Shown here one piece after another: positions 13,798 to 51,607 of a DNA stretch of 64,000 nucleotides; position 1 is the first letter of the stretch, and each line of letters begins with the position of its first letter. The translations under genes and the position numbers were made by a program. The notes below the pieces were generated by a model. It was not told where the DNA came from and did no database searches. It worked only from the letters and a program-made list of their open reading frames with translations. The stretch lies in contig CAZJUQ010000054.1 of NCBI GenBank assembly GCA_964549335.1, forward strand, positions 53,663 through 117,662, read 5' to 3'. Source of the DNA: an uncultured Lentimicrobiaceae bacterium. Its GTDB lineage: Bacteria; Bacteroidota; Bacteroidia; Bacteroidales; F082.

Positions 13798-13804
13798 TTG
13801 CTAT

Positions 13805-15178: not shown

Positions 15179-15252
15179 ACAACCCTTTTCCAAAGGCTGC
15201 AAAGATATTAATATATGTTAAAAGGTTAAATGTTTTGTGAAAATTATCAATT

Positions 15253-19050: not shown

Positions 19051-19610
19051 CTCTCCTCCTCAAAAATTTCAACTTCGAAACGGTAAATACCGGGGTGACT
19101 GTATATGCAGTCGCCCTCAAGTCCCGCTTTAAGACAAAGATGATAAAAGAACACATCGAAAGAGGGTAACTTGTCCCAAACCTGAGGCAAAAACACTGCC
19201 CTTCTGAATCCTTTCGATAGTATTATGCCGTCTTTCCCGGGGACAAGAAGACCTTTAAGTTCGTCAACACTGCTATAAATAACCTCTTCCGGTTTCGACA
19301 AAAGCGAAATTTCTATGGAGATATCCTCCATTTCATCCGGTTCCACCGGTTGGAACCTGCTGTCGCTGAATGCCGCCGCACGGGCATTGTGAATTATATC
19401 GTCCAACAACATGCGGTGTGCTTCAATACTTCCTATACAGCCGCGCAATTGTCCCTCTTTGTTGAGGGTAACAAAAACGGCACCGGGTTCGGCAAGACGT
19501 GGATATCGCCCTGTCAAATACTCCTTGTCTATCAGTTTTGCGCCTGTCAGCTTTTCCATTATCGCCTTCCGCGCAACATCAAGCATCGCTTTTTTTAACG
19601 AATCTTCCAT
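19047..19610 (-). CDS. AmmeMemoRadiSam system protein A (AMMECR1 family)
   Basis: GAVFVTLNKEGQLRGCIGS motif. ATGA overlap with the radical SAM gene. The ORF track starts at a TTG (19646); the first ATG is at 19610. Confidence 0.85.
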   Translation of the reverse strand: MEDSLKKAMLDVARKAIMEKLTGAKLIDKEYLTGRYPRLAEPGAVFVTLNKEGQLRGCIGSIEAHRMLLDDIIHNARAAAFSDSRFQPVEPDEMEDISIEISLLSKPEEVIYSSVDELKGLLVPGKDGIILSKGFRRAVFLPQVWDKLPSFDVFFYHLCLKAGLEGDCIYSHPGIYRFEVEIFEEER

Positions 19611-19658
19611 CGATTTTCCCCTCTTTTTTAAAAAGGCAAACTTCAAATTTTATACCAA

Positions 19659-22108: not shown

Positions 22109-23275
22109 TCAAGCCAACATCACGGGAGCCACATATTTGTCAATGTCCTCCTTATCTATGGTATCACCCGACAAAATAAGTAAGCGTTCCACCACATTGT
22201 GCAGTTCGCGTACATTTCCCGACCAATTGAATTCCTGAAGACGTTTCAAAGCCTCTTCCGTTATTTTTCTCGGAGGTTTTCCTTGAACCGCCGACAATTC
22301 ATCAATAAAATGTTCAACAAGCAAAGGAATATCCTCTTTGCGTTGGCGTAAGGCGGGAACATGAAGCACTATCACGCTTAAACGGTGATATAAATCTTCC
22401 CTGAAATTTCCTTTTTTTATCTCTTCTTTCAGGTCTTTGTTTGTAGCGGCTATTACACGAACATCCACCGGAATATCTTTTTCGCCGCCTACTCTTACTA
22501 TTTTATTCTCTTGCAAAGCCCGCAACACTTTTGCTTGTGCCGCCAAACTCATATCACCTATTTCGTCCAAAAACAGCGTCCCGCCGCTGGCAAGTTCAAA
22601 ATCGCCCTTTCTCTGTTTAATTGCCGAAGTAAAAGAGCCCTTTTCATGTCCGAAAAGTTGACTCTCTATCAACTCGGAAGGTATGGCGGCACAGTTAACC
22701 TCAATAAATGGTGATTTTGCCCTGTTGCTCTGTTCGTGAATTTGCCTTGCCACGAGTTCCTTGCCCGTGCCGTTTTCTCCCGAAATAAGAACACGTGCCG
22801 ACGTGGGTGCTATTTTCATAATCATCTCCTTCAAATCCGTAATTGCCTTTGATTTTCCCACAATCTCATACCTTTTCTGAACCTCGCGTTTTAACTTTTT
22901 CGTCTCAACAACCAAATCTTTTTTATCAATGGCATTCCGTACCGTTACCAATAAACGGTTCAAATCGGGAGGCTTTACTATAAAATCGTATGCACCTTTC
23001 TTTATGGCATCCACGGCGGTTTCAATGGTTCCGTGCCCCGAAATCATTATTACGGGACTTTCGCTGAACTTTTGAAGCTTTTGCAATACCTCTATCCCGT
23101 CCATTTCAGGCATCTTTATGTCGAGCAATATGGCATCGTATGCCGTTTCTTGTGCCATCTCCAAAGCATTGGAACCTTTAGCCGCCAAATCAACCTCATA
23201 TTTCTCAAATTCCAATATCTCTTTTAACGTCCGTCTTATGCTGCTCTCATCGTCAACAACCAAAATTTTAGCCAT
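22109..23275 (-). CDS. sigma-54-dependent response regulator (REC + AAA+), no C-terminal DNA-binding domain
   Basis: REC (ILVVDDE...ILLDIKMPEMDG); Walker A GENGTGKE; GAFTGA-variant GSFTSA; NVRELHN sensor II. The protein ends ~25 aa later without a Fis-type HTH. Confidence 0.88.
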   Translation of the reverse strand: MAKILVVDDESSIRRTLKEILEFEKYEVDLAAKGSNALEMAQETAYDAILLDIKMPEMDGIEVLQKLQKFSESPVIMISGHGTIETAVDAIKKGAYDFIVKPPDLNRLLVTVRNAIDKKDLVVETKKLKREVQKRYEIVGKSKAITDLKEMIMKIAPTSARVLISGENGTGKELVARQIHEQSNRAKSPFIEVNCAAIPSELIESQLFGHEKGSFTSAIKQRKGDFELASGGTLFLDEIGDMSLAAQAKVLRALQENKIVRVGGEKDIPVDVRVIAATNKDLKEEIKKGNFREDLYHRLSVIVLHVPALRQRKEDIPLLVEHFIDELSAVQGKPPRKITEEALKRLQEFNWSGNVRELHNVVERLLILSGDTIDKEDIDKYVAPVMLA

Positions 23276-23403: not shown

Positions 23404-25620
23404 ATGAAAATAGTTTTTATTGCATTAATACCGTTGCTTTTGAGCTTATCAAACCAAAATTCCACGGCACAAACCATAAAAAAATTCCCCTGGGCAGGAG
23501 GACTGAACTCGGCACAATTCGGCGAAATTGATATCAATAACGACGGTATTCCCGATTTGGTGGTGTTCGACAGGCAAGGAGACAGACTCCTGTGTTTTGT
23601 TAACGGAGGCACAACGGGAACAATAGACTATACTTATGCACCCCAATACCAAAAACTGTTTCCGCAACTTTACCACTGGGCGGAATTTAAGGATTATAAC
23701 GGTGACGGCAAAACAGACATTTTCACCTACTCGCCGGGTTGGGCGGGAATTATTGTTTATAAAAATATCACTACGGACAATCTGAAATTCAAAAGAGTAG
23801 TATATCCTTATCTCACATCTTTTCAAGGAGGAGGATATACTAACATATTTGTTACATACGCCGATTACCCCGCCATTTGCGATATTGACAATGACGGCGA
23901 CCTCGATATTTTAAGCTTTTGGGGATTGGGCTCTTTTGTCGAAATGCACAAAAATCTCTCAATGGAGAAATACGGAAATGCCGATTCGCTCGATTACGAG
24001 AAAACAGAGTATTGTTGGGGGCATTTTGCCGAAAGCGATGAATCGAATATGCTTTTTCTCGATACTTGTATCGGCAACAGAGATACAGGCATGCTTTTGA
24101 ACAACAGACATACGGGCTCAACTTTCCTTATGATAGATATCAATGCCGACGGTGTAAAAGACCTTTTGCTCGGCGATGTGGACTATCCTGGTCTGTTCCT
24201 GCTTACCAACGACGGCACCCTCCAAAATGCACACATATCGGCATTCGACACACTTTTTCCCTCATACGACACAACGGTAAAGCTTTTTTCAATGCCGGTA
24301 GCATCATATATCGATGTTAATAACGACGGCATTAAAGATTTACTGGTATCCCCTTTCGACCCCAATCCCTTCGTTACTCAAAACAGAAAGTCGGTATGGC
24401 TTTACATTAATGAGGGCGAAAACAATAATCCCGTATTCAAACTCGAAAACAAAAGCTTTTTGCAAGATAACATGATAGATGCCGGCTCGGGTGCTTATCC
24501 CCTTTTTGTTGATTGGGACGGCGACGGACTTACCGATATTTTGCTGGGAAATTATGGATTCTATGTCAATTCGTGGTACGATAACAACTTCTTTTTACAT
24601 TCGTTTTACAACTCACACTTGCAATTTTATAAAAATACAGGCACAGCTTCAAATCCCCAATTTCAACTTTACGATAACAATTTGGCTCATCTCGATTTCG
24701 AATTTCTTTTGGGAATTTATCCCGCTGCCGGCGACCTGGATAATGACGGGGATATGGACCTTTTGGTGGGTAACTCGGAAGGTAATATCATTTTTATCGA
24801 AAACCAAAACGGCGATTTGGTAATAGCGGATAAAAACTACGGCAATATCGATGTGGGGGAATACAGCACTCCACAGCTTTTCGATTTGGATAACGACGGA
24901 CTTACCGACCTTATTATTGGCGAAAAGGGAGGAAATTTGAATTATTATCACAATGAGGGAACTCCCCAATCGCCCGACTTCGTATTTGTTACCGACAGTT
25001 TAGGTAAAGTTAACGTCACCGATATCAACCTATCCTATTACGGATACAGCACCCCCTGTTTCTTCCGCACCGGCAACGGAAAAACGGTGTTGGCGGTTGG
25101 GTCGGAACAAGGTAAAATATTTTACTTCACCGATATAGACAACAACCTGGATGGTGAATTTTATGAAGAAGACGACGAAGGCTTAAATTCGCTCCTCGAT
25201 ACAAACGGGGTGAACTACGACAGGGGCATGCGTACGGCAGTCTCAATATCCGATTTGAATAACGACGGAAAACCGGAAATGGTTGCAGGAAACTTTTCGG
25301 GCGGACTCGAATTTTTTAAGAAAAATCCCGATGTTTTACCATATGTGAATGAAATTAACATTAATAAAACCTTATCTTTTAAACTATTTCCTAATCCTGC
25401 CGAAAACACTTTTTTAATAAAACTATCCGAAAAACAATCGGTCAATATAGGTTTTAACATATTAAACATTCAGGGAAAAATACTGAAATCGGGAACTATA
25501 ACGGCCGGAAACAACAAGAAAGAGGTAAATATTCAAGATATTCCGCATGGGGTATATTTGGTTGAAATTCACAGCAAAAGAATAATTTTTCAAACTAAAA
25601 AACTTTTGATAATCAAATAA
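23404..25620 (+). CDS. FG-GAP/VCBS-repeat protein with T9SS C-terminal sorting domain
   Basis: Signal peptide. Nine DxNxDGxxD-type Ca-binding repeats (DINNDGIPDLVV, DIDNDGDLDIL, DLDNDGDMDLLV and others). C-terminus FKLFPNPAENTFLIKL...GVYLVEIHS is a type A T9SS sorting-domain pattern. Confidence 0.85.
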   Translation: MKIVFIALIPLLLSLSNQNSTAQTIKKFPWAGGLNSAQFGEIDINNDGIPDLVVFDRQGDRLLCFVNGGTTGTIDYTYAPQYQKLFPQLYHWAEFKDYNGDGKTDIFTYSPGWAGIIVYKNITTDNLKFKRVVYPYLTSFQGGGYTNIFVTYADYPAICDIDNDGDLDILSFWGLGSFVEMHKNLSMEKYGNADSLDYEKTEYCWGHFAESDESNMLFLDTCIGNRDTGMLLNNRHTGSTFLMIDINADGVKDLLLGDVDYPGLFLLTNDGTLQNAHISAFDTLFPSYDTTVKLFSMPVASYIDVNNDGIKDLLVSPFDPNPFVTQNRKSVWLYINEGENNNPVFKLENKSFLQDNMIDAGSGAYPLFVDWDGDGLTDILLGNYGFYVNSWYDNNFFLHSFYNSHLQFYKNTGTASNPQFQLYDNNLAHLDFEFLLGIYPAAGDLDNDGDMDLLVGNSEGNIIFIENQNGDLVIADKNYGNIDVGEYSTPQLFDLDNDGLTDLIIGEKGGNLNYYHNEGTPQSPDFVFVTDSLGKVNVTDINLSYYGYSTPCFFRTGNGKTVLAVGSEQGKIFYFTDIDNNLDGEFYEEDDEGLNSLLDTNGVNYDRGMRTAVSISDLNNDGKPEMVAGNFSGGLEFFKKNPDVLPYVNEININKTLSFKLFPNPAENTFLIKLSEKQSVNIGFNILNIQGKILKSGTITAGNNKKEVNIQDIPHGVYLVEIHSKRIIFQTKKLLIIK

Positions 25621-38089: not shown

Positions 38090-38668
38090 TCAGAGCGGCG
38101 AATTATCCTGAAACAGTATCTTTAAAAAAGCCGCAATCTCCCGGAGATTGAGTATTTTGTGCGGCCTGACAAGTTTTATTGCCGATGAAGGCATAGCCGC
38201 ACTTTCCGCTTCGTCGGGGTTTTGTACTATGGTAAACCCTCCCCTATCTTTTATTGTTTTCAAACCTTGTGCGCCGTCGGAATTGGCTCCCGTTAACACG
38301 ATACCCACAAGTTGCTTTCCATAAGCAAGCGCCGCAGTTTCGAAAGTAACATCGATACTCGGACGCGAATAGTTGACCTTTTCTTCCACCGACAACGACA
38401 GAGTAAAATCCTCCTCTATCAACAAATGATAATTGGGCGGGGCAACATATGCCACTCCCGGTTTAATTACCTCTTTTTCGTCGGCCTCTTTTACCCTTAT
38501 GCCGGAAATATTATCCAAAAATTTAGCCATATAGCTTTCGGACGAAGGACTTATATGCTGAATAATAAAAACAGCGGCAGGAAAATCTGCCGGCAATTGC
38601 GGAAGTATTGTTTTCAGAGCATTGATTCCTCCCGCCGACGAGCCTATTGCCACTGCTTTGTACGGCAT
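38090..38668 (-). CDS. cheB: CheB-type protein-glutamate methylesterase, catalytic domain only (no receiver)
   Basis: 192 aa. AIGSSAGGINAL (Ser), FIIQHISPS (His) and TGANSDGAQG (Asp) correspond to the CheB catalytic triad regions. Starts 1 nt after the cheR stop. Confidence 0.88.
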   Translation of the reverse strand: MPYKAVAIGSSAGGINALKTILPQLPADFPAAVFIIQHISPSSESYMAKFLDNISGIRVKEADEKEVIKPGVAYVAPPNYHLLIEEDFTLSLSVEEKVNYSRPSIDVTFETAALAYGKQLVGIVLTGANSDGAQGLKTIKDRGGFTIVQNPDEAESAAMPSSAIKLVRPHKILNLREIAAFLKILFQDNSPL

Positions 38669-38669
38669 T

Positions 38670-39506
38670 TTACTTTATTCTCTTTTTGTAAATCTTTTGT
38701 TTTTCGCTGATGCTTTCGTAATTGGAGCCAATATCCGAAAACATAATTGTCTCTTTGCTTCCCAGCCCCAAAAATCCGCCTTTAACAAGACTTTCGTCGA
38801 AAAGTTTCAAAACCTTGTTTTGTAATTTACGATTAAAATATATTAAGACATTACGGCAAATAATCATGTTAACCTCTGCAAACACACTGTCGGAAACCAA
38901 ATTGTGTTCGGCAAAAACAATATTCGACTTTAATGATTGATCAAGGATTACCGAGTCGTATTTTGCCATGTAATAATCCGAAAACGAGTTTTTACCTCCG
39001 GCCTTTTGATAATTTACCGTATAGTTTTTGATATTTTCAATAGGATATATTCCCTTTTTAGCCGTTTCGATAACGCTACGGTTAAAATCGGTAGCATAAA
39101 TCTGGGTACGGTCGTAAAGTCCTTCTTCTTTAAGCATTACGGCAAAAGAGTAAACCTCTTCGCCGGTGGAACAACCGGCATGCCATATCTTAATGTAGGG
39201 ATATGTTTTCAGCACGGGAATAACTTCGGTGCGCACGGTTTTGTAAAAATCGGGGTCGCGGAACATCTCCGTAACGTTAATGGAGAGGTCTTTTATAAGT
39301 TTTTCGAAACACTTTTTATCGTACAATATTCTCCCCTGGATTTCCGACACCGAACCGGCTCCCGAATCCACAAGACGGTGCAAAATACGGCGTTTTACGT
39401 GTGCCCTGCTGTAATCGCGGAAATCGTATCCGTATTTCCTGTAAATAGCTTCCAAAAGAAGCTCTATCTCAATATTTTGTGTATCGTTATCGTCGTACGC
39501 TATCAT
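38670..39506 (-). CDS. cheR: CheR-type protein-glutamate O-methyltransferase
   Basis: N-terminal helical domain ([26 protein letters not shown]), [32 protein letters not shown]-binding motif. ATGA overlap with the upstream kinase. Confidence 0.9.
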
Positions 39507-41119
39507 TGTTTTATACTTTGTTCCTTGTTAGAAATATCCCCGAACAGTTTTTTCAAATCGTCCGATTTGAAAGGTTTGCTGACATAATAATCCATACCTG
39601 CGGCAAAACAGCGTTCGCGGTCCTCCTTGAAGGCATTTGCCGTTACGGCAACAATAACGGGTTCTTTTCCGGTTTTGTTATTTTCGTAATACTTCCGTAA
39701 TTTCCTTGTTGCTTCCAGCCCGTCCATTTCGGGCATATGAACATCCATCAAAATTACATCATAATTATTTTTAAGTTGCATTTCCACTGCTATTTTGCCG
39801 TTTTCGGCAATGTCGGTATCAATACCGAAAGATTTCAAAACCATTTTACCCACCTTTTGATTTATGGTATTATCTTCGGCAAGCAGCACTTTGAATTTTG
39901 TAAAATCGTAAAACGGTTTCCCGCTCTCCTGTTTTTTGGAGGTACCAACGGGTTCCGACTCCAAGGCTTTTATTGTAAACCAAAAATCGGAGCCCTTACC
40001 GGGTTTGCTTTCAACACCTATTTCGCCGCCGAGCATTTTCGACAATTTTTTGCTTATTGCCAAACCCAATCCCGTTCCGCCGTATTTTCGCGTAGTAGAT
40101 ATATCGGCCTGGGTAAACTCTTTAAATATATTTTCCTGTTTATCTTCGGGTATTCCTATACCCGTATCTATAACCTCAAATTTTATTACATGTCTGTTTT
40201 GTTGTTTTTGTACCGACCTCACCCTTATTGTTACCCCGCCGTTTTCAGTAAACTTTATAGCATTGTTGGTAAGGTTTATTAATATCTGATTTATTCTGAG
40301 CGAATCGCTGACAATAAATTCGGGAACATTTTCGTCTATTTCGGTTTTTAGATAAATACCTTTGTTTTCGGCTTTGAATTTCAACAAATTATAAACGGTA
40401 TCAAGTTGTTGATATAAATTAAAAGGTAATTCTTCAATTTCAATCTGTCCCGCTTCAATTTTCGAAAAATCAAGAATATCATTAATTATGGAAAGTAAAT
40501 TTTCGCCCGAAACACGGATAATTTCAAGGTTTTTTCTTTGGTCTTCGGTCAGGTCCGACTGTTCCAGCACTTCTGTCATTCCTATAATTCCGTTTAACGG
40601 GGTTCTTATTTCGTGACTCATATTTGCAAGAAACATCGATTTGGTATATGTAGCATATTCGGCTTTCTCTTTTGCTTCGCGCAACTCTTTATTCATTTTT
40701 TCTTTTTCGTCAAGCAGTTGTCTCAGCTGTTCCGACTGATTGTACAGGTCGAGAAAGACTTTAACTTTTCCTTGTAATATTTCGGGTTTTATAGGTTTCG
40801 AAATAAAATCGACGGCACCGCTTTCGATTCCTTTGACGACATAAAATTCGTCGGAATATATTGCCGACACAAATATTACGGGAAGATATTTTGTTTTGTC
40901 GTACATACGAAGCAACTCCACCGTCTCGTATCCGTCCATATCGGGCATTTGGACATCAATAATCGCCAGGGCAAAATCGTGGTGCAAAGTTTGCTTCAGA
41001 GCTTCGTTTCCCGAAAGCGCCCTCACAAATTCCACATCGAAATCTTGCAGCACCTTTTCCAAACTGATAAGATTCTCAAGGCGGTCGTCAACAATAAGTA
41101 TTTTGGGTTTTGTATTCAT
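39503..41119 (-). CDS. hybrid histidine kinase: REC - coiled coil - HisKA - HATPase - REC
   Basis: [13 protein letters not shown]; H-box [10 protein letters not shown]; [12 protein letters not shown]; C-terminal [16 protein letters not shown]. The ORF track starts at a TTG (41146); ATG 41119 gives [12 protein letters not shown]. Confidence 0.9.
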
Positions 41120-41130
41120 ACTGTTATTTG

Positions 41131-44100
41131 TTATTTGTATAACCAAACACGAATAAGCGAAATCATTTTATCAACATCGACGGGTTTTGTAAGATAATCA
41201 CTGGCACCCGACTTTAAAGCTTTTTCTTTATCTTCTTTCATAGCTTTGGCGGTAAGTATTATTACGGGCAAGTCTTTGTGTTTTTCGCTTTGACGGATTT
41301 TTTGCGTGGCGGTATATCCATCCATTTCGGGCATCATCACATCCATAAGCACCAGGTCTATATCTTCCACCTCTTCAAGCCGTTGGAGCGCCGTAACACC
41401 GTTATCGGCTTGTACCACCTCAAAACCGTGTTCCGATAAAATATGCGTCAGGGCAAATACATTTCGCATATCGTCATCAACCAAAAGGATTTTTTTGTCT
41501 TTAAAAAGTGTGTCTCCGTCGTGCAGGTCTTTTATCATTTTTTTCTTTTCGTCATCCATTTTATCCACCACTTGATGCAAAAAGAGTGCGGTTTCGTCAA
41601 GGAGCCGTTCGTCGGATTTTTCGCCTTTAATAATTACCGTACTTACATATTTTTCCAACTCTTGCGTCTCTTCTTTCGACAAGCTTCGGCCGGTATAAAC
41701 AATAACGGGAGGGATTTTTTTGTCGGTAAGGTTCTCGCGGTGAAGTTTTTTTATCAATTCGAATCCCGAAATATCGTTAATTCCAAGATCGAGGATAACA
41801 CAATCGAAATTTTTACTAAGTATTAGGTCGTAAGCATTGTTACCCGAAGTGGTTGTCGATATTTCAACACCGGGCGACTCCAATATTTTTTCAAGGGCTT
41901 TTGTTGTATTTGCATCGTCCTCGACAATAAGCAACTCTTTTACCTCTTTGTTAATGTAACTTTTAATATTTTTCATCACACCGTCAAGCTGTTCGTTAGT
42001 TACGGGTTTGCTTAAAATTCCGAATATGCATTTTTCGTTATGAAAGTCCGAAATATCGGTAGCGGACAAAACTTGAACCGGAATATGGCGCAACGAGGGG
42101 TTTTCCTTGATTATTTTAAGGAATTTATTGCCGTTCATTCCCGGCAGGTTCAAATCGAGTGTAATGGCATCGGGTTTATATTTTTCGGCCAAAATCAACC
42201 CCTGCTCGGCGGTTTGCGACACAATTCCTTTAAAATTGTACTTATGACTTTCGTTTAACAAAATTTTTGCAAACTGGGGGTCGTCTTCAATTATCAATAG
42301 CACATTGTCGAGGTCTGAAATATTGTCTCTGTCGTCGGGAATAAAGGGAGGTATCGAATCGGTCGATTCAGGTTCCGTGGCCGGTTTTGTTCCGGCGGGA
42401 GCGGCTGTAACGGTTTCGGATTGTTTTTCAACTTGCTTTTCACCGGGTTGCGACTGTTTAGGAGCGGTCTGTTTTGATTTCTCTTGGTTGTTTGATATGG
42501 AGACAGGGATACAAACGGTAAATGTCGAGCCCTTTCCGTATTCGCTTTTCAGGCTGATGCTTCCTCCCAGTTTACCTGCCAACTGTTTTGATATGGAGAG
42601 ACCCAATCCCGTGCCTCCGAATTTACGAGAAATACTGCCGTCGGCTTGTTGAAAAGCTTCGAAAATTGCCTGCTGTTTCTCTTCGGGGATACCTATTCCC
42701 GTATCCACCACATCTATGCAAATCGAATCGCCGGTGTACCCCTTAACCTTTGCAGGGTCGTTATTTTTGCGAAAACGGACGGTAACGCCTCCTTTTTGGG
42801 TAAATTTCAAAGCATTTGAGACAAGGTTTTTAAGAATTTGGTCGAGGCGTTGCCTGTCGGTAAAAAGGTTGTCGGACAGTTGGCCGTCAATTTCGGTTTT
42901 AAAATAGATACCTTTCTCACCGGCTACTTTTTCAAAAATATTTTTCAAACCCGACACAATAGCGGAAATACCGGTTTTGTCGGGATTAATCTGCATTTTT
43001 CCCGATTCTATTTTCGAGAGGTCGAGGATGTCGTTTATCAAATTGAGCAAATCTTTACCTGCATTGTAAATTATTTTTGCCGATTCTATCTGCTCGGCAG
43101 TAAGGTTACCTTTTTTGTTGTTGGTTAAATCTCTTGAGAGGATAAGCATTGAATTCAGCGGAGTTCTAAGCTCGTGTGACATATTTGCAAGAAATTCCGA
43201 TTTGTATTTACTTGCCTGTTCAAGTTCGCGGGCTTTTTGTTCCAGCTCTTTTTGCATTTTTTGCAACACGGCATTTTTCTCCATTATCTCTTTGCGTTGC
43301 ATTTCGAGGTCGTGTGTACGCTCTTCAAGTTCTTCGTTTGATACTTTAAGTTCTTCTTGCTGTTCCTGCAGCCGTTTTTCGTTTTCGCGCAACATTTCGG
43401 TTTGTTCTTCGAGTTCGGCATTGGCGGCGCGGAGTTCTTCCTGCTGTGTTTCGAGTTCTTCGGCTTGCTGCTGTGTTCGTTGCAAAAGGAGTGCTATTTT
43501 TTGGCGCGAGTCGGCAATTTGCAAGGCAGTGGCAAGCGGGGTGGATACCTGATTAAGCAACTCAACAAAAACTTTATCCACATCGTTTTGGGTGGCAATT
43601 TCCAAAATACCTACAGGCTCTTTATCGCCGGCAAACAGAGGCATAATAACGGCGGTTTTCGTAAAAAACTCTCCCGATGCCGAAAAAACCTTAAAGCCCT
43701 TTTCGGAAGCTTGCGAAACAATGGAGATTTTTTTATCAGCCCAAACCTGTCCTGTGAGCCCGTCACCTTTTTTTATTTCGGAGGGAATCAGATTTTCGTT
43801 AAGACCGTTTTTTGCAATCAGTTTCATTCTGTCGTTTTCTCTATAGAAAATGGCTCCTGCAAGGCTTCCCGTATATTCAATCAAAAACGAAAGAGCCTTG
43901 TTTCCCATCTGTCCGGGGTCTAAATCGCTGTTGAGGATTTTGTTGATTCTTGCCAACCCGTCGCGCAACCAGTTGTCGGTTTTTATCTTTTTTTCGTTCT
44001 TTTCGAGACTCTCGGCCATTTTGTTAAGAGCAACGGAGATTTCATCTTTTTCAGAACGCGGTTGTATCCTTGCCGAGTAATTTCCCGAAGCTATCGCTTG

Positions 44101-44964
44101 TGCATGTTTTAAAAAGCCTTGGAGATTTTTTTGTATGCTGTTGAACGACCTGATAAGCATTCCTATTTCATCTTTCGAATGGGGTTTTATGTCAATATTC
44201 AGATTGCCAAGCTCTATCTCTTTGAAATTTTTAACAAGTTTGGAAACCGGTTTTGAAATTGTGTTTGAAATTTTCAGTACAATGAAGTAGTTTATGATTA
44301 TCAAACTCAAAATAATAAAAAGGTTAAAGTAGCTTAGAATTTTTGTAATGAAATTGTTGATGTCGTTTATTTGAGATGCCAGACTATTGTAAAACAGCAT
44401 GATTTCACCGGAAGTATTTTGTATCTCTTCAAGTATTTCCTCATTTCCCGTCCGTTTATACATTTTTATTTTCGACAAAACATTTTCGCCCGTAACTAAT
44501 CCCGACTTGGTAATGTTAAACATTTTTTCAATACGGCTGAAGTGAAATTTGTAGAGATAATATATCCGGTTTGTTATCAGTTCTATTCTGCTTTGGTTGT
44601 ATTGTTTTCCGTAATACCGGGCAAACAGATTCAACATTGTGGTTTTATTATGATTTTTCACAATGCTGTCAACAATTGTCAAAGGATACAATGCCTTGTT
44701 TGCTTTTTCTATTTCGTTTACCGATTTTTCGTAAAACGAATCTTTATCGGTATTCAAATAAATTTGAAAATATTCCAATCCCCGGTTATAGTGCAAAGTA
44801 TGATAGCGTTCTATATCAATGATTGTATTAAACACCCCGATGGTACGGTAAATGAAATTTGAGACGAAAAGCAACAGCAACAGGTTGAAAATGACGGTAA
44901 GTTCGGCTACAATAAGTTTGTTTTTTATACCCAAATTATAGAACCAATTTTTGATTTTTCTCAT
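41131..44964 (-). CDS. large hybrid sensor kinase: TM - helical sensor - TM - HAMP x2 - GAF - 102-aa E/Q coiled coil - HisKA - HATPase - REC x3
   Basis: Two TM segments flank ~190 aa. HAMP-like [19 protein letters not shown]... and [26 protein letters not shown]-like ...[10 protein letters not shown]-box [10 protein letters not shown]; [12 protein letters not shown]. RECs: [37 protein letters not shown]. Confidence 0.9.
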
Positions 44965-45077
44965 AACAATATTTTTTTTGCAATTTCATTTTGCAAAACG
45001 CAAACGGCATTACTAAAATACTCTTACGTAAAAAAGGCAAATTGGTTTCTGAAATAAAAAAAAACGGGATAAAATCA

Positions 45078-48000
45078 TCAACTGTAAAGCCAAACTCTCA
45101 GCAAAGAGATAAGTTTTTCTTTTTCAACAGGTTTTGACAAATACTCGTTGGCACCGGCGGCGATACATTTTTCGCGGTCTTCTTTCATGGCTTTGGCAGT
45201 AAGGGCGATAATCGGCAAGTTTTTATATTTTTTCTCTTTTCTGATAAGACGCATCGCCTCGTAGCCGTCCATTTCGGGCATCATAATATCCATCAATATC
45301 AAATCGATATTATCGTTTTTGTGGAGTTTGTCGATAGCCTCTTTTCCGTTTTTTGCCACCACAACATTGGCATTGTATTCTTCGAGCAGACTTGTAAGGG
45401 CAAAGACATTCCGCATGTCGTCATCGACAATAAGAATGGTTTTCCCCTCAACAATATTTTCTTTTCCATGTGCTCCCTCCATCATTTTCTTTTTCTTTTC
45501 GGGGAAGTCGTCATCAATTTGATGCAAAAAGAGTGTTGTTTCGGCAAGCAGGCGTTCAAATGATTTTGCCCCTTTCAATATTATGCTTTGTGCATATTTT
45601 CTAAGCTTTTCGTTCTCTTCCTGAGAGAGGTCTTTGCTTGTGTAAATAACCACGGGTATGTTTTTCTGTTTTTCGTCGGCATTCATCTTTTCGAGCACTT
45701 CGTAACCGCTCATACCTTTCAATCCGAGGTCGAGGATAACACAATCGAAGTTACCGGAATTGAGTTTTTCAACAGCCTCTTCGCCGCTCTCAACCGATAC
45801 TATCTCTATTGACGAGTTTGCCATAAGTTCTTCAATGCTTTTTCTTGTAAGGGGCTCATCTTCGACTATCAGAAGTTTTTTTACCGGTTTATCGATAAAA
45901 TTTTCTATTTTATCAAATACCTCGTCCAATTGCGATTTGCTGACGGGTTTTGTTAAATATCCAATGGCTCCGTCTTTAAGGGCACTTATATCAAAGTCGC
46001 TCGACGAGATAATGTGAACCGGAATATTACGTGTTTTAGGGTTCTGCTTTAATACCGACAACACCTTTTTTCCGTCTATTCCGGGCAGTCTCATATCCAA
46101 AATTATCGCATTTGGTTTGTAATAATCGGCATGGTAAAGCCCAACTTCACCGGTATTTGCGATAATGCCTTTAAAACCGTGTTCGTGTGCAAGGTTCAAC
46201 AAAACTTTGGCAAAATTCAAATCGTCTTCGATAATGAGTATTGTTTTGTCTCCTTTTTTTATGGAATTGCGGTCGTCGGAAACGGGTTGGAGGTCTTTCT
46301 CTTCACCGTCATCAACTTTTTCAGAAGCATCTTTCAAGGTTTGATATGAGACACCTTCATTCTTAATTTTTTCCCTTGCTTCGGCTTTAGCCGTTTCGTT
46401 TTCAGCAGGTTTGTTTTCATCTGAATTACTTTCGCCGGTTTTCAGTTCGAACGGCAGGTATAGAATAAATTCGGAACCTTTACCCTCTTCGCTTTTCAAC
46501 CGCATAAATCCTCCGAGGAGTTCCGAAAAGTTTTTGGAAATACTCAATCCCAAGCCGGTGCCTCCATACTTACGGCTTGTGGTACCGTCGGCTTGTTTGA
46601 AAGCCTCGAAAATAAGGTCTTGTTTGTCTTTTGGGATGCCTATGCCGGTATCTATCACCGAAATTGCCACCATGGGCTTTTTGGTTTTTTCGTCGAAATC
46701 CTTTTTGATTTTAAAAGTTATGCTTCCCTTTTGGGTAAATTTTATGGCATTTGAGATAAGATTTTTTACTATTTGCTGAACGCGTTGAACATCGGTAATG
46801 AAGTATTCGGGGAGTTCAGGGTCTTTTTCAACTTTAAGTTCCAGTCCTTTTTCGTTTATTAAGGGTTCGAAGGTTCCTTTGATAAAATCGATAAGGTGGT
46901 CGAAATAGAGGCGTTCGGGAATAAGTTCAATGGCACCCGATTCTATTTTGGAGAGGTCGAGGATATCATTAATCAAATCGAGCAAATCGAGACCCGAAGA
47001 ATTAATGGTCTTGGCAAATTCCTGTTCTTTTTTGTCGAGGTGGTTTTTTTTGTTTTCGTTAAGCAATTGCGAAAGCACAATAATACTGTTGAGGGGTGTA
47101 CGTAGTTCGTGCGACATATTGGCAAGAAACTCCGATTTATAAAGGCTTGCAATTTCAAGGTCGCGAGCTTTTTGTTCTATCTCTTTACGTGCTATTTCCA
47201 GTTCCCGGTTTTTCTTACGTATGGCGTCGCGCTGAATTTCAAGGGCTTTTGTTCTCTCTTCAAGTTCTTCGTTAGTAACTTTAAGCTCTTCCTGCTGTTC
47301 TTGCAAATTTCTTTCCGACTGGCGCAGAGCTTCGGTCTGTTCTTGCAACTCTTCGTTAGCCTGCCTCAGTTCTTCTTGTTGTACTTCGAGTTCTTTTGCC
47401 TGCTGTTGCGTGCGCTCGAGCAACTCTTTTACCTTAATATGTGATTGCAGGGTTATGATTGCAAGGGCAATATCCTGAATTGCCAAATCGAGGAAATAGA
47501 GTTGGAGTTCGCTAAATCCGGTAACCGTAGCAAGCTCCATAACTCCCACCACTTCGTCTTTGTACGAAAATGGTACCACTGCAATCTGCTTGGGCAATTT
47601 CTTTTCCATGCCGAGGTCCAATACCAAGTCGTTATCTTCCGACGCCTTGATAATTATTCTTTTTTTATCTTTAAAGGCTTGTCCTATAATTCCTTGACCC
47701 GGCAAAACCTTTTTCGACAAACCTTTATGGTTTTTCGGAATTGCATATGTTGAGGTAAGTTTCAGGTGGTCGTCGTTGAAAAGGTAAAGCAAACCTGCCT
47801 GAGCTTCTATATAACGGGCAAAAAACGAGATAATTCCGTCGGCAAGTTCATCGATATTGAGTTTTCCTTTAAGCACTTTGTCAAGTTCGTTAAGACCGCT
47901 TTTAATCCAATCTTGTTTTTTAAACTCATTACTGTTTTTCCTCAGCGTTTCGGTCATTTTGTATAGTGCCTTACCGAGCGAGTCGTTTTCGCTGCGCGGT

Positions 48001-49463
48001 TTTATTATGGTATCGTAATCGCCTTCGGCAATACTGTTCGCCTGTTTTACAACACTGCGAAAACTTTCCACCATTTGGTTTATCGATTTTGCCAGCACGT
48101 CGTCTTTGCTTCGTTCGGTAACCTTTTCGGAGAAATCGCCCTTAGCCACAAGTCTTGCTATGTCGGCATAACGTTTGAGTGCGTTAACCAAATTGGTAAA
48201 GGTATCGCGCATCTCTCCTATTTCGTTTTTGGGAGCTTTTACACTTTTTACAACCAATTTTCCGGTGGTAATCTGTTTTGCCCACGACGACAGTTGCTTA
48301 ATGGGGTTAACAAACCAACGCGTAACAAGTATGGATATTAAGAAGACTACAATTATTGTAATGATAAAAGAAACCTTAACCATATTTGAGAGGCGGCGGG
48401 CATATGCAAAAGCTTCGGAGTGTTCAATCTCTTCAATAAGAGCCCAATGCAATCCGTATTTTTCAAGTTCGTTAAGATTCCGGTAAATACCGAGGACATA
48501 TTTCGATTTGTTATCGGCGTTGTAGGTTGTAACACGTTCGATATCCAGTTCGTTACGTTTGAGGTAGAGTTTATCGTTCCGGTGGTGTAGGAAATCGCGC
48601 CAAGCTAAAGTTTTATCGTTTTTGATTTGCCGTTTCAAGATTTCCGACTCGTTGCCAAACCTTGTAGCGGAACGCAGGTAGAGGTCGTCGCCAATAATAA
48701 AGGCATCACCGGTTTTCCCGTATCCGGCTTCCTGTTGTATCATTTCGTTGATAATGTTCATCGTTACCTGCAGGGCAAGCAATCCCGTAACTTTCCCTTC
48801 ATTATTGATAATAGGTTTGATAAAGAATCCCGAAATGATGTTGTAGCTCGGTTTGTAATGTTCCAAATCGGAGAACAGTATCTTTTTTTCTTCGGCGGCT
48901 TTACGTGCCGTTTTTGCAAATTTTGTTGCGTTAATTTCACTTTTGTAGATATTATATCCCAAATCCTCATCTTTTTTTGTGCGGAAAAGAATATTTCCTC
49001 CGGCATCGATGTAAAGGATATCGTAGAAATCTTGCAATTTCAATGAGTAGGTAAACTCTTTTTTCAGTTTTTTGGCAATTGAATCGTATTGTGCCGTTTT
49101 TACAAATTCACCTGCAGGGAGGCCGCTTTTTTTAAAAGCCTGTTCCAAACTATAGAATTGTTTAAGTTTTTGGGGCGAGTTGGCATTTATTTCAAGGAAA
49201 TTGGAAGCCTCGTCGAAGAAAGTGTATATATACCTCATACGCAGTTGCGAAGATGCGTTAAGCGATTTTTCGGCAACAATTGTCAAACCCTGATAAGCAT
49301 TTAAAAAGTTGATAAAACTAACAATGGCAAGAGGCACGAACGAAATGGCGAGAAACCATATCAACAATGATTTTCCCACACCAATGTATCTCCACGAACG
49401 CAATGAATATTTAAGTCGTTCCCATTTTGTGGCTTCGTTATAGTCGAGGTAATCTTTTTCCAT
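45078..49463 (-). CDS. large hybrid sensor kinase: TM - Cache-like sensor - TM - HAMP-like repeats - GAF - 102-aa E/Q coiled coil - HisKA - HATPase - REC x3
   Basis: TM at ~30-55 and ~365-385 flank a ~300-aa extracytoplasmic region. HAMP-like repeats (GDFSEKVTERSKDDVLAKSINQM; GDYDTIIKPRSENDSLGKALYKM). GAF-like ...VVGVMELAT. H-box [10 protein letters not shown]; [12 protein letters not shown]. RECs: IILDMRLPGIDG, VILDLGLKGMSG, LILMDIMMPEMDG. Confidence 0.9.
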   Translation of the reverse strand: MEKDYLDYNEATKWERLKYSLRSWRYIGVGKSLLIWFLAISFVPLAIVSFINFLNAYQGLTIVAEKSLNASSQLRMRYIYTFFDEASNFLEINANSPQKLKQFYSLEQAFKKSGLPAGEFVKTAQYDSIAKKLKKEFTYSLKLQDFYDILYIDAGGNILFRTKKDEDLGYNIYKSEINATKFAKTARKAAEEKKILFSDLEHYKPSYNIISGFFIKPIINNEGKVTGLLALQVTMNIINEMIQQEAGYGKTGDAFIIGDDLYLRSATRFGNESEILKRQIKNDKTLAWRDFLHHRNDKLYLKRNELDIERVTTYNADNKSKYVLGIYRNLNELEKYGLHWALIEEIEHSEAFAYARRLSNMVKVSFIITIIVVFLISILVTRWFVNPIKQLSSWAKQITTGKLVVKSVKAPKNEIGEMRDTFTNLVNALKRYADIARLVAKGDFSEKVTERSKDDVLAKSINQMVESFRSVVKQANSIAEGDYDTIIKPRSENDSLGKALYKMTETLRKNSNEFKKQDWIKSGLNELDKVLKGKLNIDELADGIISFFARYIEAQAGLLYLFNDDHLKLTSTYAIPKNHKGLSKKVLPGQGIIGQAFKDKKRIIIKASEDNDLVLDLGMEKKLPKQIAVVPFSYKDEVVGVMELATVTGFSELQLYFLDLAIQDIALAIITLQSHIKVKELLERTQQQAKELEVQQEELRQANEELQEQTEALRQSERNLQEQQEELKVTNEELEERTKALEIQRDAIRKKNRELEIARKEIEQKARDLEIASLYKSEFLANMSHELRTPLNSIIVLSQLLNENKKNHLDKKEQEFAKTINSSGLDLLDLINDILDLSKIESGAIELIPERLYFDHLIDFIKGTFEPLINEKGLELKVEKDPELPEYFITDVQRVQQIVKNLISNAIKFTQKGSITFKIKKDFDEKTKKPMVAISVIDTGIGIPKDKQDLIFEAFKQADGTTSRKYGGTGLGLSISKNFSELLGGFMRLKSEEGKGSEFILYLPFELKTGESNSDENKPAENETAKAEAREKIKNEGVSYQTLKDASEKVDDGEEKDLQPVSDDRNSIKKGDKTILIIEDDLNFAKVLLNLAHEHGFKGIIANTGEVGLYHADYYKPNAIILDMRLPGIDGKKVLSVLKQNPKTRNIPVHIISSSDFDISALKDGAIGYLTKPVSKSQLDEVFDKIENFIDKPVKKLLIVEDEPLTRKSIEELMANSSIEIVSVESGEEAVEKLNSGNFDCVILDLGLKGMSGYEVLEKMNADEKQKNIPVVIYTSKDLSQEENEKLRKYAQSIILKGAKSFERLLAETTLFLHQIDDDFPEKKKKMMEGAHGKENIVEGKTILIVDDDMRNVFALTSLLEEYNANVVVAKNGKEAIDKLHKNDNIDLILMDIMMPEMDGYEAMRLIRKEKKYKNLPIIALTAKAMKEDREKCIAAGANEYLSKPVEKEKLISLLRVWLYS

Positions 49464-49479
49464 GTTAAGAAGTCTGTTC

Positions 49480-51525
49480 TTAATTAATGTGTTCTTCTAT
49501 CATTTGATACAGGATATTTGGGTTTACCGGTTTGGAGATATAATAATCCATACCGGCGGCAAGGCACTTTTCCTTATCGCCTTTCATGGCATGTGCAGTC
49601 ATGGCAATAATCGGTATGTGTAAGCCCTTCTCTTTTTCAAATTCTCTTATCTTTTCTGTTGCTTCAAAACCGTCCATTTCAGGCATTTGCACATCCATAA
49701 GTATTAACGAGTAAGCTTCGGGATTTTCTTGTACCGCTTGGAGCGCCAACTTACCGTTTTCGACGGCTTTAGCGTCGTAACCCTTTTTTGCAAGCAGTTG
49801 CATTACTATTTTGCGGTTTATAATTTGATCTTCCGCCACCAGTATTTGCTTTCCGTTTCCCGCTTTCGATTTTCCTGTTTTTGTCTCTTTTCCCTGTTTT
49901 TTCTTCGGAGTTCCGGCAATTTGAGCATCTTCGTGAAAACCCTGAAGGCTGTCCGATTCGAGAAGGTTGCGCAATGTATTTTGCAAAACCGGTTTCATCA
50001 TAAAACCGAAATTAGCTTGCTTTCGTATTTTATCCAGTTCGACACTGGCTTTTACATGTGTAAGGAAAACGATGTTGTCGAGCGACTCTTTTTTTACCTT
50101 TTTTATTTTTTCGATAATGTTGTTTACAGGTAAATTGTTTAACGAAAAATCTATAAACATTATATCGTAATTCTCTTTTTCCAGCTTACCGATAAGTTCA
50201 TCTATTCCGGAAACCGCAACGGCATTAATATTCCAAAAATCAAAAAGTTTCAACATAATATTTCGCGGCTCTTCAAGGTCGTCGGCGACAAGAACTTTAA
50301 ATTCGCTTGCAGGTTTTTTCAGGTCGATTTTTTTCAAATCGGACTTTTGGTCGCCTGTAATCATGTTCAAGCTGAAAAAGAATTTGCTTCCCTTACCGGG
50401 CTGGCTTTCCACCTCTATTTTACCGCCCATAAGTTTAACGAGCATTTGTGCAATGTTAAGTCCGAGTCCGGTACCTCCGTGTTTGCGTGTTGTGTTCGAA
50501 TTAGCCTGAGTGTATTTTTCAAAGAGCTTCGGTATTTCGTCTTTTGGAATACCTATTCCGGTATCTTCAACGGCAAAAAATATTCTAACCTGCTCCTCCA
50601 CAAAGTCTTTCATCTCCACAACAAGTTTCACCACGCCTTTATCGGTAAATTTCACAGCATTGCTCAACAGGTTTGTCAATATTTGCCTTAATCTTAGCGG
50701 GTCGCCGATTATTACGTCGGGGATATCCGGCGACATATCTACAATCAATTCAATATCTTTCTGTTGTGCATGAACCGAGATAATCTTAAATACTTTTTCG
50801 ATAACATCCCTGATACTAAATTCAACCTCTTCAAGGTCGAGTTTTTCGGCTTCAATTTTCGAAATATCCAAAATGTCGTTAATAATTTCGAGGAGGGTAT
50901 AACCCGAGTTTTTAATGTCTTCGAGTCTTTCGCGCTGCATGGGGGTAAGGTCTTCATCCATTAAGCCCAAATCGGCCATACCGATAATTCCGTTGAGGGG
51001 TGTACGTATTTCGTGACTCATTGATGCCAGAAAGGCACTTTTGGCGCGTGTGGCTTCTTCGGCCATCATTTTTGCAGCATGCAACTCCTCCACGGTACGT
51101 TGCAGTTTTTCGGTGGTTTTTTGGAGTTCCTCCTTGTGTTTGAAAAGTTCGAGATAGGCGTTTATTTTGCTTTTTAAAATTTCCAGATCAAGGGGTTTGT
51201 AGAGGTAGTCAACGGCACCCGATTCGTATCCTTTGAAAATATGTTGGCGCTGTTTGCTTATAGCGGTCACAAAAATTATGGGGATATGTTTTGTACGTTC
51301 GCTGCTTCGCATTATTTGTGCGGTTTCGAAACCGTCCATTCCCGGCATCTGTACATCCATAAGCACAAGAGCCACATCGTGCTCAAGCAACAATCCCAAG
51401 GCTTCATTTCCCGAGTTGGCTTTTATAATGTTCATTTCGGGGCTCTCCAAAATTCCTTCAAGAGTTAAAAGGTTTTCGGGACGGTCGTCCACTATAAGAA
51501 TGTTATACTTTTTTTTATCGCTCAT
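49480..51525 (-). CDS. hybrid histidine kinase: REC - coiled coil - HisKA - HATPase - receiver-like - REC
   Basis: [13 protein letters not shown]; H-box [10 protein letters not shown]; [12 protein letters not shown]; degenerate receiver (VLVADD...IMFIDFS); C-terminal [19 protein letters not shown] 51525 gives [14 protein letters not shown]; the track start at 51612 is a TTG. Confidence 0.9.
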
Positions 51526-51599: not shown

Positions 51600-51607
51600 C
51601 AAAAATA
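51600..51607 (-). promoter_or_regulatory. candidate -7 box (TAnnTTTG) for the kinase/CheR/CheB operon
   Basis: Minus strand TATTTTTG, 74 nt upstream of ATG 51525. Confidence 0.4.

Follow-up and report, generated by a model that had tools for sequence, protein, structure and literature searches.

The six-gene operon and its modification enzymes

The 64-kb stretch of Bacteroidales DNA analysed here (hereafter the window) carries, on its minus strand, an operon of six co-directional genes (38090-51525) that encode four hybrid histidine kinases, named HK1 to HK4 in the order of transcription, a CheR-type methyltransferase dependent on S-adenosylmethionine (SAM) and a CheB methylesterase (Table 1). 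In textbooks, reversible methylation of glutamates is the device that gives bacterial chemotaxis its memory. The data gathered below make it rather likely that, in this operon, such methylation modulates a phosphorelay, which would belong to the type described for RsbK/RsbM of Bacillus cereus and be extended with a dedicated demethylase.

The first-pass annotation of this DNA had described the six open reading frames (ORFs) and the gaps that separate them (in operon order 16, 113, 11, -4 (ATGA) and 1 nt, the start of the CheR gene overlapping the stop codon of the HK4 gene by 4 nt); re-reading of the ORFs and of their starts agrees with both. Its domain calls were all recovered by Pfam but were incomplete, since HK1 carries an extra receiver (REC) and CheB lacks any REC, two features that had not been noted. 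HK2 and HK3 possess three C-terminal receivers each and HK1 three receivers in total (Pfam). All 11 receivers of the operon keep the phospho-acceptor Asp, and the operon has no detected Hpt domain. Between HAMP and GAF, HK2 also carries two extra HAMP-like repeats, A-x-G-D-[FY]...S-x-[DN]D/S...L (residues ~430-530, window 49463-47900), that are kept in the family consensus and suggest a short poly-HAMP array.

Table 1. Coordinates of the operon genes, their features and the related fusion kinases (positions in the window or, for the fusion kinases, in the locus named)
Feature	Positions	Strand	Description	Basis
HK1	49480..51525	-	ATG start, 681 aa, REC-HisKA-HATPase-REC-REC, soluble	Pfam; no transmembrane (TM) segment
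HK2	45078..49463	-	1461 aa, TM-dCache-TM-HAMP-GAF-coil-HisKA(His785)-HATPase-REC3	Pfam, TM prediction
HK3	41131..44964	-	1277 aa, TM-sensor-TM-HAMP x2-GAF-coil-HisKA(His597)-HATPase-REC3	Pfam, TM prediction
HK4	39503..41119	-	538 aa, REC-HisKA-HATPase-REC, soluble	Pfam
CheR-type SAM-dependent protein-glutamate methyltransferase	38670..39506	-	278 aa, kinase-linked (RsbM-like) clade	Pfam CheR_N + CheR
CheB methylesterase/deamidase	38090..38668	-	192 aa, catalytic domain alone, without receiver	Pfam
HK2 acceptor-like coil	47241..47390	-	residues 692-741; two 28-residue units, the first being LEVQQEELRQANEELQEQTEALRQSERN	translation
HK3 acceptor-like coil	43306..43455	-	residues 504-553	translation; aligned to HK2 and Niallia on the phospho-His
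Candidate Bacteroidota -7 box TATTTTTG	51600..51607	-	~75 nt 5' of the HK1 ATG	sequence
Fusion kinase, L137	4398-7883
Fusion kinase, L138	3778-8421
Fusion kinase, L139	3871-8157
Fusion kinase, L140	3853-6957
Fusion kinase, L141	3628-8115
Fusion kinase, L142	3874-6831

Both enzymes look active and appear to form a clade of their own. CheR matches PF01739 and PF03705 (CheR, 146 bits for a cut-off of 27; CheR_N, 43 bits) and CheB matches PF01339 (CheB_methylest, 202 bits for a cut-off of 24). In CheR, the motifs for SAM binding are intact, as is the FR(D/E) arginine, and R83 is present; R39, R40 and R83 are 100% conserved across 109 members of the CheR clade, and the N-terminal helix is basic. 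In canonical CheR, this helix contacts the acidic methylation helix. The S11/H38/D131 triad of CheB aligns with S164/H190/D286 of Salmonella CheB, and all 109 CheB genes of the related loci encode proteins of 127-229 aa devoid of receiver. A CheB receiver displaced to the C-terminus of HK2 or HK3 was considered, and no NCBIfam CheB model was found among the 25 kinase matches listed.

More than 8,000 homologues of the window CheR were retrieved at E <= 1e-10, the best 120 being 67-100% identical to it. Among CheR proteins encoded by plasmids, identities to the window CheR are bimodal, with 44-52% for those linked to kinases and at most 32% for all others (range 23-32%). The chemotaxis CheR of E. 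coli and Ralstonia are ~26-27% identical to it. Pfam and NCBIfam label the window proteins as chemotaxis CheR and CheB, with NCBIfam scores that are far under the equivalog/subfamily cut-offs; 'chemotaxis protein CheR/CheB' is a misleading annotation for the kinase-linked clade.

The first-pass annotation had also reported that the window is devoid of genes for methyl-accepting chemotaxis proteins (MCPs), CheA, CheW or CheY alone, and this holds. Indeed, Pfam scans found no MCP signalling domain, CheA or CheW in 36 window ORFs and no stand-alone CheY in the window, and MCPsignal (PF00015) has no match in the six operon proteins at E <= 0.01. Likewise, MCPsignal and CheW probes (confirmed as genuine by Pfam) matched none of the 377 stop-to-stop ORFs of the window in phmmer searches, none of the ~1,370 ORFs of 133 related loci and none of the 785 ORFs of the 61 genome loci surveyed for CheR (see below). 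The additional argument that Bacteroidota generally lack flagella proved not to be decisive, as the module is also present in lineages with flagellated, chemotactic members (Desulfobacterium, Spirochaetaceae, Agrobacterium).

A conserved coil and its linkage to CheR and CheB

Reading of the translations revealed a heptad segment rich in Glu and Gln, located directly 5' of the H-box and near-identical in HK2 and HK3. In HK2, its Glu-Glu (EE) pairs (E697/E698, E704/E705, E725/E726 and E732/E733) occupy heptad positions b and c. This coil was searched exhaustively by phmmer, using 96 residues against 1.84 billion cluster representatives; a word-index search with a 93-aa coil had given no more than 5 fragments, the parent protein not being among them. 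The phmmer search retrieved 1,322 proteins (50%-identity clusters) at E <= 1e-3, including 277 at E <= 1e-10. The coil segment is 48-80% identical among the matches listed, and the best 150 of the 1,322 all display the organization (sensor)-(HAMP)-GAF-coil-HisKA-HATPase-(REC)n.

The alignment of 192 distinct sequences indicates that the coil is a duplicated 28-residue unit, L-Q-x-Q-Q-E-E-L-R-x-[AT]-N-E-E-L-E-E-[QR]-T-x-A-L. Its d positions are occupied by Leu throughout (91-100%), its a positions are polar (Q 95%, N 98%, T 81%, E 90%, Q 86%, N 99%, T 74%) and its four EE pairs, at exposed b/c positions, are 86-98% conserved; in the H-box-proximal part of the same coil, the b/c positions are only 20-60% conserved. 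According to an AlphaFold2 model of HK2 (40-sequence alignment, mean predicted local distance difference test score 83.6), residues 652-803 form one uninterrupted helix of 152 residues that runs from GAF through both units into helix 1 of the DHp domain. Invariant residues exposed on a coiled coil point to recognition by a partner.

The arrangement of the operon is not a chance juxtaposition, since it recurs in other genomes with unrelated flanking genes. Homologous operons are found in three complete Bacteroidales genomes, each between unrelated flanks, and the minimal form in Bacteroidales encodes a REC-HK-REC protein, a dCache-HAMP-GAF-HK protein, CheR and CheB. Orthologues of HK2 are found within the same operon in other genomes, those of HK3 only in a subset of the orthologous operons (L001, L008, L085, L102 and L110), and the HK4 gene also precedes the CheR gene in many loci and occurs in Agrobacterium.

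A survey based on CheR and limited to one genome per species provided 61 loci from ~12 phyla, whose CheR are 48-71% identical. Their hosts include Bacteroidota, Desulfobacterota, Gammaproteobacteria (including Coxiellaceae and Moraxellaceae), Nitrospinota, Nitrospirota and Chloroflexota, but also Cloacimonadota, Spirochaetota, Fusobacteriota, Calditrichota and Ignavibacteriota/Chlorobiota. A GAF-coil-HK-RECn kinase is encoded by all 46 loci with at least 5 kb upstream of the CheR gene, and CheB by 33 of the 35 loci with both flanks complete. In the reverse survey, metagenome contigs searched with the 96-aa coil alone provided 63 loci, 42 of which have at least 4 kb downstream of the kinase gene; 38 of these 42 encode CheR and 36 encode CheB. 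Whether one starts from this CheR/CheB clade or from the GAF-coil kinases, the linkage is near-obligate, and the association of the coil with CheR, at ~90%, is not absolute.

Three related loci deserve separate mention. The plasmid AZO_p3 of Azospirillum lipoferum 4B encodes a 1955-aa HAMP-array kinase homologous to HK2 (L135, 4007-9874) without any adjacent CheR or CheB gene. In its coil, three of the four pairs no longer have their second Glu (NERL, QEKL, NEAL), a pattern that would be expected if EE pairs exist for CheR, observed here in a single case. In a Calditrichaceae metagenome-assembled genome (L041, 5705-7540), the CheR gene is followed by a gene encoding a 611-aa REC-Hpt-HATPase protein, similar to a CheA core devoid of CheW domain, and there is no CheB gene. 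Finally, inverted copies of a gene pair (219 and 586 aa) located at 12743-15207 and 18358-20822 of L070 flank REC, CheR and REC-GGDEF genes; this pair appears to have separated a coil kinase and its receiver part, and the arrangement is suggestive of a composite transposon.

The layout of the window also exists in a culturable organism. Indeed, the plasmid pAtCFBP6625b of Agrobacterium tumefaciens encodes a CHASE3-GAF-coil-HK-REC3 kinase, CheR, a 190-aa CheB and a REC-HK-REC protein, i.e. the same four-gene layout. Furthermore, EE heptads are found in the CheB-CheR-PAS-(HWE/HisKA) fusion kinases. In all six proteins examined, whose hosts belong to five alphaproteobacterial orders and to Deinococcus, a run of 4-8 (S/T)xNEEL heptads in register (for example TEELRAANEELQSMNEEYRSTAEELETSKEELQSINEELQ) is located ~200 residues past the CheR domain, and the window coil directly matches four of the six. 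These heptads may constitute a built-in methyl-acceptor segment. The EE-heptad coil is thus what the examined CheB/CheR systems without MCP have in common, in trans as well as in cis. A literature search of partial coverage found neither a description of an EE-heptad coil shared by trans and cis systems nor a functional study of the CheB-CheR fusion kinases.

The N-terminal RECs of HK1 and HK4 (49.6% identical to each other) are 50-66% identical to those of partner regulators that are encoded by genes located after CheB in other phyla, versus 14-40% for the other RECs of the operon. Elsewhere, the partner regulators carry GGDEF-EAL, GGDEF, PAS-PilZ, HisKA_2-kinase, PAS-HK or Hpt-HATPase outputs, and the module therefore has a variable output; in the window, the output stage would consist of two further kinases, HK1 and HK4. 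The N-terminal receiver of HK1 belongs to the conserved partner subtype, so that this protein is predicted to accept phosphoryl groups from HK2 and HK3. By analogy with the direct His-to-Asp transfer from RsbK to RsbY, raised as a possibility in B. cereus (PMC4574943), the transfer within the window operon would most likely be direct.

The first-pass annotation was not aware of any experimental demonstration of kinase methylation for such an architecture. One exists, as RsbK is a HAMP-GAF-S-helix hybrid kinase methylated by a CheR-type enzyme, RsbM (PMC4574943). RsbK displays the order CHASE3-HAMP-GAF-S-helix-HK-CA-REC, with H505 as phospho-acceptor and D827 as receiver Asp (PMC4574943). As summarized in that paper from Chen et al. 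2012, it is methylated on its signalling helix (S-helix) by RsbM, whose gene is immediately downstream (PMC4574943). This methylation is needed for the off state of sigma-B and strengthens the interaction between the C-terminal REC and the S-helix, and RsbM is called an orphan methyltransferase, with no cognate esterase (PMC4574943). The genomic association between RsbK and CheR was found by de Been and colleagues 2011 and is reported as widespread (PMC12848376). CheR/CheB genes located downstream of multi-REC kinases in several phyla were noted in passing by MacGregor 2016 (PMC5108060).

The window is linked to these systems through Niallia, a genus that includes one of the species with RsbK homologues in S3 Table of PMC4574943 (Niallia nealsonii). 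The best plasmid match to the window CheR (52% identity, E = 2e-105) is encoded by a megaplasmid of Niallia taxi (Bacillaceae). The corresponding locus (L136) encodes a 920-aa kinase (four-helix bundle-HAMP-GAF-coil-HisKA-HATPase-REC), CheR and a divergent REC-SpoIIE/PP2C protein of RsbY type, without any CheB; judging from its gene content, it is a complete RsbK-M-Y module. The Niallia kinase and HK2 share 33% identity over 759 aa (E = 4e-114), and the former matches peptides deduced from B. cereus rsbK primers, including LGIGIMNILGRM (Niallia) versus LGLTIHSIMGRM (B. cereus). Among the primer-derived peptides (S2 Table, PMC4574943), KSEFLA and LRSSKYK, located before H505, match the consensus of the coil-kinase family at 9 of 10 positions, NLGLTIH and SIMGRM sit at the GAF/S-helix boundary of RsbK, and KFIKKYK is the C-terminus of RsbM, the window CheR ending with QKIYKKRIK.

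The S-helix of the Niallia kinase reads QTEELQT QSEELQA QSEELQT QTEELRM INEQLEERT. When the kinases are anchored without gap on the phospho-His, EEL triplets are centred 59 and 52 residues before it (His-59 and His-52) in Niallia, HK2 (E726, E733) and HK3 (E538, E545), and further triplets of HK2 are located at His-80 and His-87. In all three kinases, the residue at His-59 is the second Glu of such a triplet (E726, 98% conserved, in HK2 and E538 in HK3). The methylated residues of RsbK are reportedly E439 (preferred) and E446 (minor). Relative to H505, they would correspond to His-66 and His-59, a correspondence that is suggestive only.

Proposed mechanism, alternatives and genomic setting

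The gene content, the linkage, the conservation of the coil, the intact catalytic residues and the homology to the Bacillaceae RsbK-M-Y module are the observations from which a mechanism can be proposed; methylation in this branch, its sites, the sign of its effect, the route of phosphotransfer and the output are inferred. HK2, with its dCache sensor, and HK3, with a different periplasmic sensor, would be membrane-bound dimeric hybrid kinases, in which signals would travel via HAMP and GAF into a long signalling helix continuous with the phospho-acceptor helix. Using SAM, CheR would most likely form a methyl ester on one Glu of these EE pairs; E726 and E733 (HK2) as well as E538 and E545 (HK3) are the best candidate sites. 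The modification would take away negative charge and alter helix packing; by analogy with RsbK, it would favour docking of a C-terminal REC on the S-helix/DHp and keep the kinase in its off state. As for the REC-less CheB, it would remove the methyl groups, making the modification reversible, and may also deamidate the invariant Gln-Gln pair. Since this CheB lacks a receiver, any feedback would have to rely on substrate conformation rather than on phosphorylation of CheB. From active HK2 and HK3, phosphoryl groups would travel to HK1 and HK4 through the N-terminal receivers of these two proteins, which would then signal to a regulator encoded outside the operon.

The proposal of the first-pass annotation, that CheR and CheB act directly on the sensor kinases, is thus retained in part. 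For HK2 and HK3, it is likely to be right and receives strong comparative support from linkage, from the lack of detected MCP, CheA and CheW in 133 related loci, and from coil, catalytic residues and fusions. Its extension to all four kinases was rejected, as HK1 and HK4 are devoid of QQEE/NEE units and their N-terminal RECs group with the partner regulators; both look like downstream receivers rather than substrates.

Several points weigh against methylation of the coil. The whole case is comparative, and the bridge to RsbK consists of the Niallia homologue and of short primer-derived peptides, not of the B. cereus proteins. At His-66, which would be the preferred site of RsbK if the reported numbering is right, Niallia has a Glu whereas HK2 and HK3 have Asn/Arg. 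The methylation consensus of MCPs, [ASTG][ASTG]xx[EQ][EQ]xx[ASTG][ASTG], has no match in the six operon proteins, for 0.11 matches expected by chance and with Tsr matching as a positive control. Furthermore, the E and Q identities are fixed in the coil, without the interchange seen at many MCP sites. Lastly, four of the 42 coil kinases (L120, L130, L132 and L133) have no CheR or CheB gene within 10 kb and yet keep an intact proximal QQEELRQANEELQE unit, so that conservation of the coil is not attributable solely to an adjacent CheR; in these four cases, the enzymes may be encoded elsewhere or the motif may have a second function. The conserved exposed residues could instead serve for receiver docking. 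Indeed, CheR and CheB might act on the kinase module with the QQEE/NEE coil being only a docking surface for a receiver or another partner, the methylated residues belonging to other Glu of HK2/HK3, to the REC-HK-REC proteins or to a receiver. Such an explanation, which is unlikely, would account for the CheR-less loci and the lack of MCP consensus. It would also agree with the EEL triplets present in the linker of HK1 and with the interaction of the C-terminal REC of RsbK with both the S-helix and the HK domain (PMC4574943). However, the methylation of RsbK was mapped to the S-helix itself (PMC4574943), and exposed EE pairs spaced by seven residues on an acidic helix have the geometry of a CheR substrate. 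Moreover, the fusion kinases carry the same EE heptads despite different downstream domains, several of them without any detected receiver, and REC-HK-REC proteins are dispensable, being missing from many related loci, whereas the coil kinase is invariant.

Two other explanations would dissociate the enzymes from the kinases or deprive them of activity. CheR and CheB could belong to a chemosensory pathway, either conventional or of alternative function, whose MCP, CheA and CheW genes would lie in another part of the genome, and be merely co-located or co-transcribed with the kinases. The chemotaxis names given by Pfam and NCBIfam agree with it, some host lineages of the module are chemotactic, and the scans for MCP, CheA and CheW are limited to the window and the related loci. 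Nevertheless, the near-obligate linkage to GAF-coil kinases over ~12 phyla and in both directions, the lack of detected MCP and CheW in the 133 related loci and the lack, in 109 of 109 CheB, of the receiver that couples canonical CheB to CheA make this very improbable, as do the bimodal identities of plasmid CheR and the low NCBIfam scores. That the two genes are catalytically dead relics kept by operon inertia is harder still to believe: the triad, the SAM motifs and the catalytic Arg are intact, with 100% conservation where measured, the homologues are numerous and the best of them very similar, and the genes have been kept across phyla through repeated horizontal transfer.

Direct methylation of HK2 and HK3 would have consequences beyond this operon. 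A broader proposal, held more tentatively and with somewhat less than even confidence, is that the operon encodes a whole circuit for reversible, methylation-based adaptation, with a two-component kinase as its target instead of a chemoreceptor, and that the 28-residue QQEEL..NEELEE.T unit is a portable methyl-acceptor module, read in trans by the CheR/REC-less-CheB clade (> 1,300 kinase clusters, over a dozen phyla) and, in a related version, in cis in the fusions. If so, feedback would rely on activity-dependent accessibility of the helix, since CheB cannot be phosphorylated, and integral-feedback adaptation would be available for transcriptional or cyclic di-GMP signalling in non-motile bacteria, beyond the case of B. 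cereus, whose methylation, without esterase, is presented as a repressive lock that works one way. More generally, if the device routinely tunes sensor kinases, adaptation to change rather than to absolute level would be open to gene-regulatory and cyclic di-GMP pathways in very numerous bacteria, including the non-motile Bacteroidales of sediments and anaerobic digesters. The one experimental foothold, RsbK/RsbM of B. cereus, is a system without demethylase. The coil now provides residue-level predictions for acceptor sites in HK2 (E698, E705, E726 and E733) and a signature to find such kinases, with Agrobacterium tumefaciens pAtCFBP6625b and Niallia taxi as culturable carriers.

As for expression, the first-pass annotation had placed a -7 box upstream of HK1. 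The sequence is present, intergenic and downstream of a terminator-like hairpin (51739-51727) of the upstream gene, but the motif is not enriched: TAnnTTTG is found 67 times in the window for 77 expected, i.e. at chance frequency, so that the TATTTTTG box is supported by its position alone. The same -7 box was searched for in the 113-nt internal gap and none was found; a sigma-70 promoter scan was also run, with a model that is uninformative for Bacteroidota.

The genes flanking the operon are housekeeping ones (gcvP, a gene of the ADP-forming acyl-CoA synthetase type, a gene encoding a thioredoxin-family protein, nadE and aroC). Elsewhere in the window are found three tandem paralogues encoding B12-binding radical SAM proteins of 459, 464 and 465 aa (11027-15202), and a Memo-like gene adjoining both a radical SAM gene and another small gene (17261-19646), a set of three that resembles the AmmeMemoRadiSam trio. 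The window also encodes a 388-aa REC-sigma54-interaction-AAA-lid protein in which Pfam found no DNA-binding HTH (22109-23275) and an FG-GAP repeat protein with a Por/T9SS C-terminal sorting domain, which fits a Bacteroidota host (23404-25620).

Comparison with known systems

Compared with the canonical adaptation of MCPs by CheR and CheB (Tar and Tsr of E. coli), the window system involves the same enzyme families with their catalytic residues kept, and its acidic helical coil likewise exposes Glu-Glu/Gln-Glu pairs seven residues apart. Methylation and demethylation would be opposed in both, so that adaptation is possible in principle. However, the window system is devoid of MCP signalling domain, CheA and CheW, and its coils do not harbour the small-residue methylation consensus. 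The acceptor is predicted, from the heptad pattern and the AlphaFold2 monomer model, to be a two-stranded signalling helix leading into DHp and not a four-helix bundle. Unlike the canonical chemotaxis CheB, that of the window has no receiver, and CheA-dependent feedback is therefore impossible; the output would be a phosphorelay and not a motor. The lack of MCP consensus, the fixed E and Q, the unphosphorylatable CheB and the probable two-stranded acceptor thus lower the claim for a chemotaxis adaptation system. The claim for reversible glutamate methylation, comparative as it is, is left undiminished by these same features.

Like the S-helix linkers of sensor kinases and cyclases, the window coil is a long heptad helix between a sensor module (GAF) and DHp, and it holds motifs of the ERT type (LLERT, LEERT). 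These presumably correspond to the S-helix signature reported by Anantharaman, Balaji and Aravind 2006. Whereas generic S-helices have ~40 residues and exposed positions that are not conserved, the window coil is ~100 residues long, internally duplicated and 86-98% invariant at its exposed EE, QQ and N positions. In the fusion kinases, as in the window, CheB and CheR domains are tied to a histidine kinase rather than to an MCP, and the coil of the Sinorhizobium meliloti (S. meliloti) fusion is near-identical to that of HK2 (EELRAANEELQ versus EELRQANEELQ). The fusions nevertheless gather enzymes and acceptor-like coil on one polypeptide (cis), whereas the window separates them (trans); furthermore, their coil is followed by PAS domains, that of the window being placed between GAF and DHp, and their CheR domains are only ~29-31% identical to the window CheR.

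RsbK/RsbM remains the closest relative. HK2 and HK3 share with RsbK the order sensor-HAMP-GAF-S-helix-HisKA-HATPase-REC, the CheR-type gene belongs to the kinase operon and lies downstream of kinase genes, the EE pairs of the S-helix have heptad spacing and the same register relative to the phospho-His, and no Hpt domain is involved. The window differs by a dedicated REC-less CheB, which B. cereus lacks, by kinases with three C-terminal receivers instead of one, by two paralogous predicted acceptor kinases and by its host, a member of the Bacteroidales instead of the Bacillaceae. Its coil comprises two QQEEL..NEELEE.T units, versus four Q(S/T)EELQx heptads in Niallia. The partner is also different: instead of RsbY, the window encodes REC-HK-REC proteins whose receiver is of another subtype (~32% identity to that of the Niallia RsbY), and Pfam scans found no SpoIIE/PP2C or sigma-B cluster gene in the window. 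The REC-PP2C/sigma-B partner defines the Bacillus sub-type and not the kinase/methyltransferase core. On the evidence of its genes and coils, the operon is therefore best regarded as an RsbK/RsbM-type system based on a methylatable S-helix kinase, i.e. as a widespread and little-studied form of a known kind of system rather than a new principle. What sets it apart is the dedicated REC-less CheB (33 of 35 complete related loci), the two predicted acceptor kinases, the REC-HK-REC partners and a host from the Bacteroidales. Taken with the signature at residue level, which recurs in the fusion kinases, these features make up a worthwhile but moderate finding, which extends the RsbK/RsbM type to a form equipped with its own demethylase.

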